Positions 680 through 7,887 of a stretch of 64,000 bases of DNA are shown here, piece by piece. How positions within the stretch are numbered: position 1 is the first letter of the stretch; each line of letters opens with the position of its first letter. The notes beneath the pieces are model-generated. The model was not told the origin of the DNA and did not search any database. It worked only from the letters and a program-made list of their open reading frames with translations. A program made the position numbers and the translations under genes. Source of the stretch: Spirochaetia bacterium (GTDB lineage Bacteria; Spirochaetota; Spirochaetia; DSM-16054; Sediminispirochaetaceae); the NCBI GenBank assembly GCA_034520965.1, contig JAXHMY010000007.1, forward strand, positions 32,001-96,000. Direction: 5' to 3'.

Positions 680-3076
680 ATGAACGAAAGCAAGAGCCAA
701 TTTTTCCACCTCCATGTCCATTCGGAATACTCCCTCTATGACAGCACTGTTCACCTGCATCGATATGTAGAAGAGGCCACGCACCGGGGATTAAAGCACC
801 TGGCTGTCACAGATAGTGGGAATATGTTCGCTGCGCTTGAGTTCTACAGGCTGTGCCAAGAGGCAGGAATCAATCCCATCATCGGATGTGAGTTTGTCCT
901 CTCCTCCGCCTCTGCTACCACTGACCGAGTAAGTGAGCGTGGGACCATCCTCCTGATTGCAGAGAATAACCAGGGCTACCATAACCTGATGCAGCTGAGC
1001 ACACATTATCATCTTGATAACGCAGAGCTCCTACTCACCGATACTCTGCTGCGGGAATATCATCACTGTCTTATAGCTCTCACCGCTGGGATGGAAGGAG
1101 AAGTATCATGGCAATTAATGCAAGGCAAGTATGAGCAGGCTGAAAATAGGGTGTTGGAGCTGCAGGAGATCTTCGACAAGGATTCACTGTTCTTGGAGCT
1201 CCAAGATAACGGAACAGAAGAGAGTAAGACAGTCAATGAGGGGCTTTCCGTTCTTTCAGCTCGCCTTGGTATTCCGTTGGTTGCTGCTAATCCGGTTCAC
1301 TACCTACATAGAGAAGAGGCGCAGGCCTGTCAGGTCCTCCAGAAAATCGGTTCTCTTTATCACAAGGGAATGAAGTACAACTCGGAAGGACAATCGGATC
1401 AGCAGTACCTTAAAAGTGAAGATGAGATGCATGCTCTCTTCTCTGAGTTTCCGGAGGCCATCGAGAATACGCTGCACATTGCCCAGAGGTGCAGAATAGG
1501 TCTTCCCATGAGTGCTCCTGAATTACCGATGTTGGATATCCCAAGTGAATACCCATCCTCCCATGAGTATCTCAGGGCTCTGGTGATGGAAGGTCTATCT
1601 GGTCGGTATAAACAGGTTTCGCAGGAGGCATATGAGAGAATAGAGAAGGAGCTTGCGGCGCTACAACAGGTTGGGTATACCGATTATCTCCTTATTGTTG
1701 CTGACTATATCGGTTTTGCCTGTAAGAGTGACATTCCAGTGGGACCTGGCAGGGGTGCTGCAGCTGGTTCTCTTGTCGCATATGCCCTGGGAATAACTGA
1801 CATTGATCCTCTGAAGTATGGGCTTCTCTCTGAACGGTTCCTCAACCCTGAACGGATTGCCAGCCCAGATATTGATACCGACTTCTGCTATGATCGGCGT
1901 TGGGAAGTGATGGATTATGTGAGGGATAAGTTTGGAGAAGATCGTACAGCCAATATCATCACCTTTGGAAGGTATAAAGCTCGGTTGGCTGTTCGTGATG
2001 TTGGCAGAGCAATGGGGCTTTCTTATTCTGAGATAGAATCTTTGGCCAGGAAGATTCCATTACAACCAAGTATGAACCTTAAAAGAGCTTTGGAAGATAA
2101 TGTCTATCTGCAAAGGGCAGCAGCTGAAAACCCGTTGAATGGAAAAGCTCTGATGATAGCACAGGTGTTGGAAGGCCTTCCTATTCAGGTTTCAACCCAT
2201 GCAGCTGGTATCGTCATTTCTCGGAAGGCAATTACATCTTACTCTCCCCTGTATAGGGACCGGCAGCACTATGCTGCATGCACCCAGTACACAAGTGACC
2301 GCCTAACCGAACTGGGGCTGGTAAGGTACGACTTTCTGGGCTTCAAGGTGCTGACCCTCCTACAACAGTGCCGAGATAAGATTCGGGAGAATAGATCAGG
2401 TTTTGAGCTTACTCACATTCCTGATGACGATAAGCTTACCTTCCAACTGCTGGGAGACGGCACTACCACGGGAGTTTTCCTCTGCGAGAGCTCCGGTATG
2501 AAGGGCATTCTCCAGAAGGACAAGCCTCAGAATATCGAAGAGCTTACCGCCCTCACTGCACTCTATCGGCCAGGGGCCATGGAGCTGATACCGAGGTATA
2601 TTGAAGCAAAGCAGTCCGGTAGACTTGCGCATTTAATTCCAGATCTTGAGACTATCCTGGCCTCAACCTATGGAATTCTCGTGTATCAAGAGCAGATTAT
2701 GGAAATAGCCCATGCTGTGGCAGGGTGGCCCTACGGAAAGGCTGATATTCTCAGGCGAACCTTGTCGAAGCCGAATGAGCAGCTCGGAGTATCGATGAAG
2801 AGAGGCTTCGTTAAAGATGCAATGGGGCTTGGTGTGTCTAAGGATTCTGCGGAAGGGATTTTTGAAATGCTAACTGAAGCTGGTACATATGCTGTACTCA
2901 AGGCTCATAGCATATCTTACTCGCTGTTGGCCTACCGGTCTGCATTCCTGAAGGCTCATTTCCCTCAAGAGTTCATGCAGAGCTTGTTGAAGGTTGAAGA
3001 GGATAATCCAGCCAAGTATGAAGATTACAGCAAGGAAGCTGCACGAATGGGGCTGTTAACTGATACGTTTTCGTAG
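680..3076 (+). CDS. dnaE: DNA polymerase III alpha (C-family), short form: PHP plus palm/thumb/fingers only
   Basis: HLHVHSEYS, GPGRGAAAGSLVAY, SERFLNPER, PDIDTDF, THAAGIVI, YDFLG, YQEQIM; ends at 798 aa just after KAHFPQEFM, with no HhH/clamp-binding, OB-fold or CTD. Confidence 0.92.
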   Translation: MNESKSQFFHLHVHSEYSLYDSTVHLHRYVEEATHRGLKHLAVTDSGNMFAALEFYRLCQEAGINPIIGCEFVLSSASATTDRVSERGTILLIAENNQGYHNLMQLSTHYHLDNAELLLTDTLLREYHHCLIALTAGMEGEVSWQLMQGKYEQAENRVLELQEIFDKDSLFLELQDNGTEESKTVNEGLSVLSARLGIPLVAANPVHYLHREEAQACQVLQKIGSLYHKGMKYNSEGQSDQQYLKSEDEMHALFSEFPEAIENTLHIAQRCRIGLPMSAPELPMLDIPSEYPSSHEYLRALVMEGLSGRYKQVSQEAYERIEKELAALQQVGYTDYLLIVADYIGFACKSDIPVGPGRGAAAGSLVAYALGITDIDPLKYGLLSERFLNPERIASPDIDTDFCYDRRWEVMDYVRDKFGEDRTANIITFGRYKARLAVRDVGRAMGLSYSEIESLARKIPLQPSMNLKRALEDNVYLQRAAAENPLNGKALMIAQVLEGLPIQVSTHAAGIVISRKAITSYSPLYRDRQHYAACTQYTSDRLTELGLVRYDFLGFKVLTLLQQCRDKIRENRSGFELTHIPDDDKLTFQLLGDGTTTGVFLCESSGMKGILQKDKPQNIEELTALTALYRPGAMELIPRYIEAKQSGRLAHLIPDLETILASTYGILVYQEQIMEIAHAVAGWPYGKADILRRTLSKPNEQLGVSMKRGFVKDAMGLGVSKDSAEGIFEMLTEAGTYAVLKAHSISYSLLAYRSAFLKAHFPQEFMQSLLKVEEDNPAKYEDYSKEAARMGLLTDTFS

Positions 3077-3084
3077 CAGAGGCA

Positions 3085-3801
3085 TTACTCCTCCGGAAGA
3101 GCATCGAAGAACTTGTAAATCAGCCAAGAGGGCTTTTTCTCACCGGTTACTTTGTCCACTGGTGCAGTAAGTGGATAATACCCGTCATTGAGGGCCCGTT
3201 GTACGGTGGTATAGTATCCAGAACGATCTCCCCATATCTGAACTTCTCCGTATTGAGGATCGGTGGAGATGATTGGCTGGGTAATTGTCGGTAAACCTTG
3301 GGAGACTGGTTCTCCTCCGAACATGAGGCTGTGGTCGCCTTTCTGGAAGAGTATAAAGAAGTTCAATTGGTATCTGTTTACAGCTCGCTTAAGATCATCC
3401 GGCATAGACCGCCATGCGTTTCTGTACCACCTGTTAAGTTGGAGCATGTAGATTTGAGGAACACTGATAGGAAGGAGTCTCCGATTACCAGGTTTGAATG
3501 GACGACCGAAAGCATCTTTGGGTGGCTCCTCCGGGGTGTAATCCGGGATCATGATGATAAGTTGTATCTGGTTATTAGCAGCACTGGCACCTACTCGATA
3601 ATCAAAAGCTGGTTCCATATTGCCGAGGCGTTCGGTTATAAACTCTTCGTCGAAGTGGGGTTTCAAGGTTTCTGGTAGCTGGTTAAAGACCTGCAAGGAC
3701 TTTCCGCTGGAAAGGTTGTAGGTGGTCTGGGCTTCCAGGCCTATGGATAAAACAAGGGTGAGAATTGCAGACAAGATAAGTGGTTTCAAATTGTTCTTCA
3801 T
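3085..3801 (-). CDS. Hypothetical exported protein
   Basis: 238 aa; signal peptide MKNNLKPLILSAILTLVLSIGLEA; RBS aaggag. Confidence 0.75.
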   Translation of the reverse strand: MKNNLKPLILSAILTLVLSIGLEAQTTYNLSSGKSLQVFNQLPETLKPHFDEEFITERLGNMEPAFDYRVGASAANNQIQLIIMIPDYTPEEPPKDAFGRPFKPGNRRLLPISVPQIYMLQLNRWYRNAWRSMPDDLKRAVNRYQLNFFILFQKGDHSLMFGGEPVSQGLPTITQPIISTDPQYGEVQIWGDRSGYYTTVQRALNDGYYPLTAPVDKVTGEKKPSWLIYKFFDALPEE

Positions 3802-3850: not shown

Positions 3851-3869
3851 TGTGCCGATTTTTGGCACA
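3851..3869. promoter_or_regulatory. Putative WYL-regulator site upstream of the exported protein gene
   Basis: Perfect TGTGCC-gattttt-GGCACA, 49 nt before the ATG at 3801. Confidence 0.7.
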
Positions 3870-3969: not shown

Positions 3970-5454
3970 TTACAGCCCCTCTCGAAGATGCTGATACAGC
4001 CTAACCATCGCAAGAGTATCCAGACGACAGTACTCCTTAAGCCCCTGTGCCAGTTCTAGACGTTTGGACCGGTCTTCTTCTTTTATAAGCTGGTCCCATA
4101 CCACCTGGGCAGCTCCTCCGTTCTGCACATCAAGGTCCTTGTAGCTAAGTTCCGGTACCAGTACTGGCAGAATAGCTTTGATAGAGTTCGACCCTCCGAA
4201 TGCAGGATGGAAGTAGTAGTCTCTGAAGATCTTCATGAGGTCGAAGAACCTGTCCAGCATTCCTCTTAGCTGAGTTCGGTATTCTGGGGTAACAAAAGAA
4301 AGTTCTTTTATTACTCGCTTCTCGAAGCTGTCGTTGAAGGCAATGATGGTACCGTCTGGGCCAATATCTCGGCAGAGCTGTTCGGCCAATGGCCCTCTGG
4401 GGTCGGTATTATCTGTATGCAAATATTCGCTGTGGCTCAGCTCTCCATTCTCTTGCAGGATGTGCAGGCTGTATTGGAAGGCATACTGGTCATAGGGCCG
4501 TAATCCTGGAAGCCTTGGGACTGCGTCCATTTGGGTCTCGAAGTCAAGGAAATATAAGGGGTACTGGAGTGCGGCAAGCTCGTCTCTAATAGCCGGCCAT
4601 AGTATCTGTGCTTTGTTTTGATCGAAAAGTCCCACGTATCGTCTCTGGTTCTCTGAGAAGGGAAAGGTGTCCGGAATATCGTAGATTGAATAGATGTCCT
4701 GAGCAGTGAGCCTGTCGATCTTCTGTGCACTTATCCGGGGAATGGAGAAGATGGAAGGCTCCTTCACCTCCCTCCAGCAGTGGTCTTTGAATGGACATTC
4801 ATAGGGCTGCAGGCAGTGTTTTCCGATTTTAATATCCGGTGCTTGGGGTAACTGGAGGATTGAATGGAACTCTGCGACCTTCGGGTGTAATGCCTTCCAC
4901 ACTATCTCCGTCTCCTCGGTGATATCATCCAGTTCAAAGAGCTCCTGAAGGTCTGGGTATCGGCACTTACGGTTTAGATGCATCAGGTATACCCCTGAAA
5001 CTTCAAGGCCTGAACCTTCCACTACATAGCGCTGCACTGCACTGTCGGCTATATGGGTGTCGCTGGTCTTGGTGGTGGATTTAACCTCAATGACGTTCCA
5101 GGTTCCGTCGATTCGCTGCTGGAGAATGTCTACCCGTACGAAGATACCGTCGAAAAGGAAGGCTGGTTCAAAGAGGACCGGAGCTCCCTGCTGTAAAAGT
5201 TCTTGGGTGTGTTTTAGTGTTCTTTCCGGTTGCCGGAAGTCTCCGTCTACAAGTACCCCTTCGGGGTATTGCTCACAGGCAAGCTCTCCGACAGTATGCC
5301 CTGTATCGAAGATACGCTGCTGGGATGGAGTAGGAGGGCTTGCCAGGTCTCTATGGTATGTCTCTAAGTACAGACGTTTGCTGCACTGAAGGCCGTTGAT
5401 GAATCTGCTTTTGCTCAGTGAACTGTATTTTGTTTTTTCTTTACTCCCATTCAT
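3970..5454 (-). CDS. DUF2779-like protein: Cas4-like PD-(D/E)XK nuclease fused to an RNase H/DEDD-like exonuclease
   Basis: LSKSRF..QCSKRLYL, RVDIL..EVKS, CLQPYECPFKDHC (1+3 Cys), then YFLDFET, FNDSFE, EYCRLD. Confidence 0.85.
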   Translation of the reverse strand: MNGSKEKTKYSSLSKSRFINGLQCSKRLYLETYHRDLASPPTPSQQRIFDTGHTVGELACEQYPEGVLVDGDFRQPERTLKHTQELLQQGAPVLFEPAFLFDGIFVRVDILQQRIDGTWNVIEVKSTTKTSDTHIADSAVQRYVVEGSGLEVSGVYLMHLNRKCRYPDLQELFELDDITEETEIVWKALHPKVAEFHSILQLPQAPDIKIGKHCLQPYECPFKDHCWREVKEPSIFSIPRISAQKIDRLTAQDIYSIYDIPDTFPFSENQRRYVGLFDQNKAQILWPAIRDELAALQYPLYFLDFETQMDAVPRLPGLRPYDQYAFQYSLHILQENGELSHSEYLHTDNTDPRGPLAEQLCRDIGPDGTIIAFNDSFEKRVIKELSFVTPEYRTQLRGMLDRFFDLMKIFRDYYFHPAFGGSNSIKAILPVLVPELSYKDLDVQNGGAAQVVWDQLIKEEDRSKRLELAQGLKEYCRLDTLAMVRLYQHLREGL

Positions 5455-5472: not shown

Positions 5473-6507
5473 CTAACGGTTATACACCTTTGAAAGGGAG
5501 CTTATCAGCATCTTAAACTCTTCGATGAGCTCCGGTGGATTGGTTATTTTGGCTTGGTCCCCGAAGCTCAAAACCCAACGGAGCACATCAGCCTTGCCGG
5601 ATGTTTCCATAGTTAAGCTAAGCGAACCGTCCTGCTGTTCGGTAATTTCCTGGTTTTTCGCCCATGTTCTGCCGCGAACCCTCCGGGCGGCGGCCGAGGT
5701 AAACTGGATGGTGATCTCTACAGCGTCTCCAAGAGTAAGGTCAAAAGTAGTTTCAAGTAGTTCCTCCGGGTAGAAGTTATTCGGTTCATCAAAATGTTTA
5801 TTGAGTAAGCTAATTTCTTCTATTCTGTCGACTGCAAGGATGCGAATTACTTTTGGGCCGGGAAGTTGTGCAAAGAGGTATAAAGCGCCGTCGTGTTCAA
5901 AAAGCCGAAGCGGATCTATATTGTAGCTCTTAGTGCGGCCATGGGACAGGGCTGTGTAGGTGACTGTGCAGGAGATTCGTTCCACGATTGCCTTTAATAG
6001 ATTCTCAAAAATTACTTCGAAGTGCGAATAGTTTTTGGGGTGGTGAGAAGCGGAGACGAATATCGACTGAAGGCGATCGGTTTGGGCTGCTGAAAGGTAG
6101 TCGGCGGGTATTAGTAGACCGAGTTTCTGCCGTACCGAAGCGAGCAGACTCTCTACCGGTGTACCGGTAAATACTCGATCACGGGAGAGAAGAAAGTAGA
6201 GTGCCAGCTGTTCTCGCAATGTCAGTTTTACATCCGGCAGCCGCAGGTTCGGGAGGTTGTGTAGATAGCTCTCCTCCAGGTGCCAGCGTTTCTCCCTTTC
6301 TCCGGGAATCGTATTATCATAGACCGGAAATTGAAGCTGCTCCAACGTTTCGAAAAGACGATACACCGATCTTCTAGAAATACCCAGCTGTCTTTGCAGC
6401 TCTTTAACTGTTACCCCCTGTGGGTTTGAAAGAGCATCGATTGCCCTGAGAATTTTTATTAAATTTCTTCCATGCACATTGTCAGAATACTCTGTTTTCC
6501 GGTTCAT
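5473..6507 (-). CDS. WYL-domain transcriptional regulator (wHTH-WYL-WCX, PafBC/DriD-like)
   Basis: HTH VTVKELQRQLGISRRSVYR; IDPLRL..ALYLFA..LAVDRI; C-terminal LRWVLSFGDQAKITNP. Confidence 0.92.
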   Translation of the reverse strand: MNRKTEYSDNVHGRNLIKILRAIDALSNPQGVTVKELQRQLGISRRSVYRLFETLEQLQFPVYDNTIPGEREKRWHLEESYLHNLPNLRLPDVKLTLREQLALYFLLSRDRVFTGTPVESLLASVRQKLGLLIPADYLSAAQTDRLQSIFVSASHHPKNYSHFEVIFENLLKAIVERISCTVTYTALSHGRTKSYNIDPLRLFEHDGALYLFAQLPGPKVIRILAVDRIEEISLLNKHFDEPNNFYPEELLETTFDLTLGDAVEITIQFTSAAARRVRGRTWAKNQEITEQQDGSLSLTMETSGKADVLRWVLSFGDQAKITNPPELIEEFKMLISSLSKVYNR

Positions 6508-6543: not shown

Positions 6544-6562
6544 TGTGCCGAAATCAGGCACA
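6544..6562. promoter_or_regulatory. Putative autoregulatory WYL site
   Basis: Perfect TGTGCC-gaaatca-GGCACA, 36 nt before the WYL ATG. Confidence 0.75.
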
Positions 6563-7594: not shown

Positions 7595-7823
7595 TCCGGA
7601 TCAAGTCCTGCCGGGTCCCAGCCACACAATAAAAAAGCGGCCTGTTTTGCAACAAACCGCTTTTTCATTTTGGGCCCACCCTACGTTTTCTCCTTCGGAG
7701 AAAGCCTCGGGCTTGCACTTTGCTGGCGCAAAGTGCTTGGCCAGGACTTTTTCAAGTCCTGGCGCTAACACCAAAAAAATAGCCGTCCGCAAGTAGCGAA
7801 CGGCTATTTTTTATGGGCCCACC
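7595..7823. repeat. tRNA-linked tandem hairpin units with duplicated tRNA 3'-end pieces
   Basis: tgggcccacc at 7671-7680 and 7814-7823; tcaagtcctg at 7601 and 7752; terminator-like hairpins at 7631-7665 and 7774-7812. Confidence 0.6.
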
Positions 7824-7887
7824 AGGACTTGAACCTGGGACGCCCTGATTATGAGTCAGGTGCTCTAACCAACTGAGCTATAGGCCC
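7814..7887 (-). tRNA. tRNA(CAT), probably Ile2 (lysidine-modified); Met not excluded
   Basis: GGGCCTATAGCTCAGTTGGTTAGAGCACCTGACTCATAATCAGGGCGTCCCAGGTTCAAGTCCTGGTGGGCCCA; CCA not encoded. Confidence 0.93.

Follow-up and report, generated by a model that had tools for sequence, protein, structure and literature searches.

The window analyzed in this study is a 64,000-nucleotide stretch of contig JAXHMY010000007.1 (positions 32,001 to 96,000, forward strand) of the Spirochaetia bacterium assembly GCA_034520965.1. Close to its left end, in an island with a WYL-domain regulator gene and a fragment of dnaB, lies a gene for a shortened copy of the replicative DNA polymerase subunit DnaE1:

680 to 3076, + strand: core-only DnaE1 paralogue of 798 amino acids (aa), with a degenerate PHP metal site, a palm carrying the catalytic triad and the changes S360A and K549R, a thumb, and fingers.

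The gene forms a single open reading frame (ORF) with a ribosome-binding site, uninterrupted as reported in a preliminary description of this DNA. Pfam searches matched PHP (residues 10 to 176), DNA_pol3_alpha (296 to 554), and DNA_pol3_finger (558 to 714), and no HHH_6, OB, or any other Pfam match was found beyond residue 714. The catalytic aspartates previously read from the motifs PDIDTDF and YDFLG were confirmed by alignment, with D397, D399, and D551 corresponding to Escherichia coli D401, D403, and D555. The equivalents of E. coli R390, R396, R709/R710, K758, H760, and Y764 are all intact. The altered PHP motifs TDS and ANPVH, and VLKAH at the FNKSH motif, were also confirmed. The PHP metal motif reads HHDSETGPH versus HHDHEH[C/H]DH, with 4 of the 9 metal-site positions changed; the intact motif is the usual state in DnaE1, except in some Proteobacteria, and is present in the DnaE1 of the host. 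In addition, the GS motif is GRGA, with alanine at the equivalent of E. coli S364 (S360A), and the equivalent of E. coli K553 is arginine (K549R), each position being invariant in 169 of 169 full-length DnaEs. These two changes had been overlooked in the preliminary description, as had the palindrome at 623 to 641 and the WYL and DnaB-fragment neighbors described below. Among 85 near-invariant columns, 13 deviate in the 798-aa protein, compared with a median of 0 in full-length DnaEs and 17 in the DnaE2-like protein of the host.

The protein stops where full-length DnaEs run on into xxPPDIN, as had been described. Residue L792 aligns with E. coli L809, which places the end of the protein at about E. 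coli residue 815, and the (HhH)2, clamp-binding motif, OB domain, and C-terminal domain (CTD) are gone. In E. coli Pol III alpha, according to the available part of one structural study, residues 831 to 886 bind the duplex, the clamp motif occupies residues 920 to 925, and an OB domain and a tau-binding tail are present (PMC4703070). Since all of these map beyond the end of the 798-aa protein, the duplex, clamp, OB, and tau contacts are missing from it. Structure comparison revealed that the fold is intact up to the end of the fingers; the AlphaFold model, built from 11 sequences, had a low mean predicted local distance difference test score of 70 at the active site and served for fold identity only. 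This copy may have weak residual polymerase activity, and such a polymerase, if active, would be distributive and non-proofreading.

The host genome (G000; 3.35 Mb, 86% complete) contains three DnaE genes. The host DnaE1 is full length and 44% identical to the 798-aa protein, and the DnaE2-like gene encodes 1,012 aa, keeps the catalytic triad, and is 30% identical to it. The nearest full-length matches to the 798-aa protein are named as Spirochaetia. A salt-pan metagenome contains 92% of the words sampled and may be the source. HHH_6 matched only the two other dnaE genes of this 86% complete genome, and no separate C-terminal half was found. A split-intein or split DnaE was rejected because neither an intein half nor a separate C-terminal gene was detected in the 86% complete genome, which agrees with the earlier statements that there is no intein junction and no remainder of the gene, a convergent gene ending 8 bp past the dnaE stop. 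The sole RNase_T/DEDDh match of the genome, a 144-aa frame at G000:C1:297369-297701, is a possible DnaQ-like partner for PHP.

Six clusters, all of 779 to 826 aa, make up the clade to which the window protein belongs, so that the clade ending near 800 aa anticipated in the preliminary description was found. The five other clusters are 62 to 87% identical to the window protein and have the same three domains, the next match beyond the clade is 47% identical and full length, and a profile search recovered the identical six clusters. The clade proteins end 29 to 37 residues past KAx[YF], and the host DnaE1 reaches PPDIN 34 residues past this motif. In a quick tree the clade was monophyletic (support of 100), with a stem of 1.2 changes per site, and grouped beside Spirochaetia DnaE1 (SH-aLRT of 99) and not with DnaE2; with so long a stem, the exact sister of the clade is unsure. 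In contigs of related strains from microbial-mat runs, variants occurred at 577 places, and the 40 with the best support, each scored singly, comprised 24 synonymous and 16 non-synonymous changes, with 24% synonymous expected (omega of about 0.21, p of 1e-6), which indicates purifying selection. All 8 of the listed rows of insertions and deletions among these strains preserve the frame. Compared with the copy of another relative (G016), synonymous divergence (dS) is saturated and non-synonymous divergence (dN) is 0.38 over 153 codons. A recent truncation or frameshift, the alternative considered in the preliminary description, was rejected because relatives 62 to 87% identical share the end point, selection is purifying, and the insertions and deletions keep the frame. 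The last 10 to 17 codons (window positions 3024 to 3076) vary between related strains, and the stop lies at about the same place.

The clade is rare, and a piece of it was found only in G016 among 40 relatives. A DNA search of 401 genomes gave just short palm matches, and the protein search of the 401 genomes scored 2 candidates per genome, making its count a lower bound. A clade-specific DNA pattern had 3 matches in genome contigs, 0 of which fell in a dnaE. The metagenome matches listed were mostly ordinary DnaEs; the 80 of them kept included no member of the window clade but, by chance, L071, described below, and no RNA data set among those listed carried the gene.

Core-only DnaEs also occur outside this clade. 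A search of 50%-identity representatives gave 7 proteins of 767 to 791 aa among the best 150, and six of these seven end 10 to 22 residues past KAx[YF]; five of the six are known from protein sequence alone, and their stops are putative. One of them, P0181, has five cluster mates of equal length, and P0239, a contig-cut DnaE1 named partial, was dropped. Among ten follow-up genomes, G139 alone holds a core-only copy. In genus g45, copies were found in 4 of 61 genomes, a count that leaves out three further candidates, and loci L273 to L275 were left out of the analysis; the copy of G430 is cut by a contig end and was counted in the class by its tree position. In another phylum, one copy (G496) was found among 131 genomes. 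That copy (L276:7976-10507, on G496:C77, from the phylum sample around an Opitutales record) has an intact triad, has lost the first PHP motif, and has DUF262-like, PLD-like, and macro-like neighbors. A phage replicase was rejected as an explanation, as no early-stopping DnaE was found in 80 + 7 viral loci, a few of which are cut by contig ends. Clusters of the ESM Atlas that lack HHH_6 were left out of the evidence as possible fragments.

Core-only DnaEs arose several times from host dnaE1. The G139 copy is the sister of the DnaE1 of its own host (support of 99; 67% identical). The young copies of g45 cluster with g45 DnaE1 (support of 100; about 70% identical), and P0220 and P0201 fall with other full-length lineages. 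In quick trees under LG+G4, a single clade of all 14 tested copies was rejected by the approximately unbiased (AU) test (p-AU of 3e-5), as was a clade uniting the window clade, G139, and the young g45 copies (p-AU of 5e-9). The branches starred on the tree require at least 6 changes, and the same end point was reached in at least six origins.

The active site is eroded across the class. Among 18 core-only DnaEs, the equivalents of D397, D399, and D551 are kept in 14, 16, and 15 proteins, respectively, and those of S360, R392, and K549 in 10, 10, and 11, with each residue kept in all 169 full-length controls; the E. coli S364, R396, and K553 equivalents are thus each lost in 7 to 8 of 18. Six of the 18 core-only proteins, including P0005 of the window clade, have a broken triad, versus 0 of 169 replicases. 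Catalytic losses are already present in the G139 and G430 copies, which are 67 to 68% identical to the DnaE1 of their host lineage. In 10 lineages, 24% of active-site columns deviate versus 15% of other invariant columns (p of 0.016, the columns not being independent). By domain, deviation is lowest in PHP (12%), followed by the palm (15%), fingers (22%), and thumb (33%). The PHP metal motif is intact in just 2 of 17 core-only proteins. Within the window clade, the conservation of PHP equals that of the palm, which differs from the situation in replicases.

The gene lies in an island with the following other features, of which those given with C7 coordinates are outside the window:

C7:30201-30219: exact palindrome of the upstream unit.
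C7:30271-30705, same strand as dnaE: gene for a 144-aa membrane protein.
C7:30721-31314, same strand as dnaE: 197-aa DnaB C-terminal fragment.
1 to 551, + strand: 3' part of the gene for a 401-aa PD-(D/E)XK nuclease (PDDEXK_4; weak PADLOC match to PDC-S26), the last gene of the upstream unit.
558 to 591, + strand: hairpin 3' of the nuclease gene, likely a terminator.
623 to 641, no strand: TGTGAC-N7-GGCACA, a candidate WYL operator that departs from the palindrome at one position and lies about 40 nt upstream of the dnaE start, with putative binding.
3085 to 3801, - strand: gene for a 238-aa protein that belongs to no known family and has a signal-peptide-like N terminus, convergent with dnaE and with its own palindrome.
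3851 to 3869, no strand: exact palindrome TGTGCC-N7-GGCACA upstream of the 238-aa gene.
3970 to 5454, - strand: gene for a 494-aa DUF2779/Cas4-like/RNase H-like protein, directly 3' of the WYL gene.
5473 to 6507, - strand: gene for a 344-aa HTH-WYL-WCX regulator of DriD/PafBC-type architecture, the likely island controller.
6544 to 6562, no strand: exact palindrome TGTGCC-N7-GGCACA upstream of the WYL gene, likely for autoregulation.
7814 to 7887, - strand: tRNA-Met(CAT), the likely right border or integration site of the island.

The exact sequence TGTGCC-N7-GGCACA occurs 3 times in the whole genome, always inside this 8.4-kb island and 37 to 52 nt before a start, and with the imperfect dnaE copy four units of the island carry a palindrome. 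Six other spacer lengths gave 0 exact matches genome-wide. Only two other one-mismatch palindromes exist in the genome, both within genes, so that no intergenic site with at most 1 mismatch lies outside the island, and neither the palindrome nor a close WYL orthologue was found in 16 family genomes. Contigs of related strains preserve the arrangement, one covering the DnaB fragment, nuclease, and dnaE and another the nuclease and dnaE. In one related strain, 18 nt stand in place of the hairpin and operator and join dnaE to the upstream operon, which would bring dnaE under the upstream exact palindrome. DriD is a WYL protein activated by single-stranded DNA that binds ATACGAC-N7-GTCGTAT, including at its own promoter, as described in the available text of PMC10853764. 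Control of dnaE by the neighboring WYL protein is likely, considering the placement of the palindromes and the precedent of DriD with its 7-nt spacer and own promoter. The 197-aa DnaB fragment has a degenerate Walker A region and falls into a small, separate family of 5 clusters (172 to 197 aa, 58 to 96% identity). Neither Pfam nor 20 relatives gave a match for the 238-aa protein. With PADLOC 2.0, the DnaE core, DnaB fragment, and 144-aa protein matched no system model, and matches were confined to their neighbors.

Modules of a core-only DnaE with a WYL gene were built independently in G139, G407, G016, and L071. A WYL gene lies within 8 kb of the core-only dnaE in 5 of 8 records (G000, G016, G139, G407, and L071) versus 0 of 79 full-length loci; the Fisher p of 6e-7 was computed at 5 of 7, with G496 not yet included. 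WYL genes number just 1 to 5 per genome, and the WYL proteins of four compared loci are 22 to 37% identical. A DnaB fragment without the N-terminal domain accompanies the core-only DnaE in 3 of 8 records, and a nuclease gene is adjacent or at most 2 genes away in G000, G016, G139, and L071. The G139 locus contains the 793-aa DnaE, a 426-aa remnant, an AddAB-like pair, a toxin-antitoxin pair, a WYL gene, a DnaB fragment, and TAGGAC-N7-GTCCTA sites. In G407, a NUDIX gene, a 764-aa DnaE, a WYL gene, and a DnaB without its N-terminal domain are accompanied by a second DnaE copy of 804 aa 3.4 kb away, and the exact TGACA-N5-TGTCA sites of the genome (3 of 3) are all at that locus; such a site is also found upstream of the 753-aa copy of G428. 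The order in G016 is the DnaE end, a nuclease, a toxin-antitoxin pair, and WYL. The control offered a blind check: among the 80 metagenome dnaE loci listed (1.11 Mb, many of the loci redundant and 46 of at least 12 kb), L071 alone has a WYL gene and it alone has an early-stopping DnaE. In L071, CTATC-N7-GATAG stands upstream of the WYL gene, of dnaE, and of one other gene.

Further observations were made at these loci. The 426-aa remnant of G139 (L256:12020-13300, on G139:C214) retains PHP and a portion of the core that lacks the first palm segment, and stands in tandem with the 793-aa copy, followed by the AddAB-like pair. The same genome has five WYL genes and an extra diverged DnaB-like gene (439-aa frame; G139:C304:2337-3059) beside a normal dnaB. 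G407 has two facing arrays (L268 and L269, on G407:C46), and in each of them a core-only DnaE is accompanied by a NUDIX gene and a gene with ankyrin repeats; of the two DnaEs, one is old and dead and the other young and near intact.

Taken together, the window gene very probably encodes a selected, WYL-linked, non-replicative DnaE paralogue. The protein is a DnaE1 variant that fails the full DnaE1, DnaE2, and DnaEX architectures. It resembles DnaE1 (E. coli 2hnh/5fkv, Taq 2hpi/3e0d, and Mycobacterium tuberculosis 5lew) in the sequence and fold from PHP through palm, thumb, and fingers, in the triad, and in its descent from spirochete DnaE1, but it ends at about E. coli residue 815 without (HhH)2, clamp motif, OB, and CTD, has changed PHP and GS motifs, and is an extra copy in an island. 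Like DnaE2 in the ImuA-ImuB-DnaE2 mutasome, it is an additional, non-essential DnaE whose PHP site is degenerate and whose induction by stress is likely. However, it groups with DnaE1, is only distantly similar to the DnaE2-like protein of its host (30%), and has no imu neighbors, and DnaE2 keeps (HhH)2 in every architecture listed in the available part of Timinskas et al. (2014) and usually OB (PMC3919608), neither of which is present here. DnaEX of the same paper is likewise a strongly diverged extra copy beside a normal replicase, but all DnaEX listed there keep (HhH)2, and the name is a residual label to which the available part attaches no regulator or partner (PMC3919608). That paper, in the part available, calls (HhH)2 nearly universal, and its Table S2 of 945 genomes has no form that stops after PHP and Pol3, the nearest being one DnaE3 with an unassigned tail (PMC3919608). 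In a 2026 survey, according to its available text, truncated sequences were discarded ahead of the trees, and its supplements may list such sequences (PMC12926913). Searches of the literature, which left subscription journals mostly uncovered, found no paper on a module of WYL with a cut-down DnaE or DnaB. The core-only DnaE is a selected form and apparently undescribed.

The system itself amounts to a WYL cassette of the DriD kind that carries new cargo. It shares with the DriD regulon of Caulobacter (and with PafBC, SiwR, BrxR, and CapW) a wHTH-WYL-WCX regulator and a palindrome with a 7-nt spacer before the targets and its own gene. However, the half-site differs and the targets in the window genome are restricted to one island, including cut-down copies of replisome genes; the DNA-repair targets that DriD has across its genome have no counterpart, since no intergenic site with at most 1 mismatch lies outside the island.

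For the function of this protein, we favor, at somewhat below even odds, a DnaE1 core cut before (HhH)2 that acts not as a polymerase but as a decoy that binds phage or toxin proteins directed against the replisome of the host. In this model, the WYL protein would sense single-stranded DNA and switch on the four palindrome-bearing units as DriD does. Lacking clamp and tau contacts, the core would be excluded from loading at the fork, and it could therefore be produced in bulk without damage to replication. The PHP-palm-fingers surface and the co-regulated DnaB motor-domain fragment would then absorb an inhibitor or hijacker of the real DnaE and DnaB, both displaying the surface of the host target while being barred from the replisome. 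This reading is suggested by the retention of the folded N-terminal three-quarters, the removal of the clamp, tau, and duplex ties, and the tolerance of catalytic loss. A binding role is favored over gap filling because of the regulatory and defense-island setting and the cut-down DnaB partner. Titration has a precedent in the neutralization of the phage protein Ped1 by extra DnaB (PMC13728149). The likeness is that extra copies of a replisome protein neutralize a phage inhibitor, but the available part of that paper concerns full-length DnaB overexpressed in Pseudomonas, neither a natural decoy gene nor DnaE (PMC13728149). More broadly, and more tentatively still, bacteria may repeatedly bring duplicates of host dnaE and dnaB into WYL-controlled islands, where they lose the parts that connect them with the replisome and their active sites decay, yielding inducible replisome decoys in a general defense by host-target mimicry, with the window gene as an early-stage and nearly catalytic example.

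Several points weigh against decoys under WYL control. The palindrome of dnaE is the imperfect copy and is lost in one strain. No WYL gene was found in the stretches examined for G428, G450, and G496, or in the whole G496 genome, and the G450 copy is decayed. For the G139 motif, the reversed-pattern control yielded 3 hits as well, and 7 copies of the g45 motif are present in a genome that has no core-only DnaE gene. The window protein keeps the three catalytic aspartates, 12 of the 18 proteins have an intact triad, and P0004, P0006, and P0201 retain all nine scored core residues. The loss of catalytic residues is just as compatible with a dominant-negative role or a role in DNA binding, and in part with simple relaxation. 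We know of no characterized phage protein that targets the DnaE core.

A replication brake appears unlikely but accounts for several of the observations. The WYL-induced core would sit on primer ends or titrate a PHP partner (DnaQ, for example), and helicase assembly would be poisoned by the DnaB fragment, so that host or phage DNA synthesis would stall as a checkpoint or in abortive infection. DriD-type regulons induce the cell-cycle inhibitor DidA (PMC10853764, available text), and PHP, the best-kept domain here, binds the exonuclease in E. coli (PMC4703070, available part). Catalysis is dispensable across the class, the genome holds one DEDDh-family candidate, and DnaE and DnaB fragments occur together in 3 of 8 records. 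However, a dominant-negative protein would profit from the clamp, tau, and duplex contacts that every lineage discarded, and the most eroded domains, thumb and fingers, are the ones that hold DNA.

The preliminary description proposed a distributive, non-proofreading, possibly error-prone or gap-filling polymerase, which in the present setting would be WYL-induced, serve gap filling or damage bypass, and be paired with the island nucleases. Such a function is improbable. A fragment of E. coli alpha of about 818 residues reportedly retained weak activity (Kim, Pritchard and McHenry, 1997), the fold of the window protein is whole up to the end of the fingers, its triad and the arginine, lysine, histidine, and tyrosine residues enumerated above (R390, R396, R709/R710, K758, H760, and Y764) are intact, and nucleases adjoin the gene in four records (G000, G016, G139, and L071). 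As a selected function, however, it found no support: the triad is broken in one-third of the class, clade member P0005 included, the S364 and K553 equivalents are altered in the window protein itself, the S364, R396, and K553 equivalents are lost in many of its counterparts, and the host already owns a DnaE2-like gene with its triad kept. Nor does a form ending after PHP and Pol3 appear among the active-site-bearing polymerases of the 945 genomes in the available part of PMC3919608.

Another binding task of PHP or palm, such as the sensing of nucleotides, pyrophosphate, or DNA ends to trigger or scaffold the neighboring nuclease, is very doubtful. The nearby nucleases of the same four records, the PHP-only remnant retained in tandem in G139, and the conservation of PHP at the level of the palm within the clade, unlike in replicases, would suit it, but the nuclease differs from record to record, none is adjacent in G407 and G428, and the metal and triphosphate ligands are the very residues that are disappearing. 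Finally, a decaying relic in a gene-collecting island, or one half of a split gene, is largely refuted and most improbable, since the long stem branch, the scattered active-site losses, the decayed G450 copy, and a genome only 86% complete are outweighed by open frames at 58 to 87% identity, omega of about 0.2, saturated dS versus dN of 0.38, one end point shared by at least six origins, and the lack of a free HHH_6 gene or intein.

The core-only DnaEs constitute a selected class of C-family proteins without (HhH)2, made repeatedly from host DnaE1 and tied to WYL and cut-down DnaB. If they are decoys, they would serve as ready-made baits for finding the phage or toxin proteins by which Pol III and DnaB are attacked, and would represent defense by host-target mimicry; if active, they would be natural minimal C-family polymerases. 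As the 18 sequences grade from intact to dead active sites, both readings are directly testable.

Other elements were also observed. A low-GC defense cluster at G000:C7:16192-27081 (L006) lies upstream of the window and contains IetA/IetS, AbiEi/AbiEii, a ParA-like ATPase, and a PDC-M30/M41-type pair with DUF5131. A 456-aa ORF (G000:C7:28353-29723) encodes a nucleotidyltransferase-like N terminus fused to two EamA repeats. Two 60-nt stretches (G000:C7:30134-30193 and C7:23915-23974), 78% alike and with repeated TGAGTA words, are possibly the sites of a second regulator. The repeat TAGACGTTT was considered as integron-like and rejected, as its 10 copies are scattered and mostly within genes. 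A 122-bp element (G000:C7:29963-30084) closely precedes the palindrome of the DnaB-fragment unit; it resembles a miniature inverted-repeat transposable element and has 96 to 98% identical copies on C2, C3, and C9.

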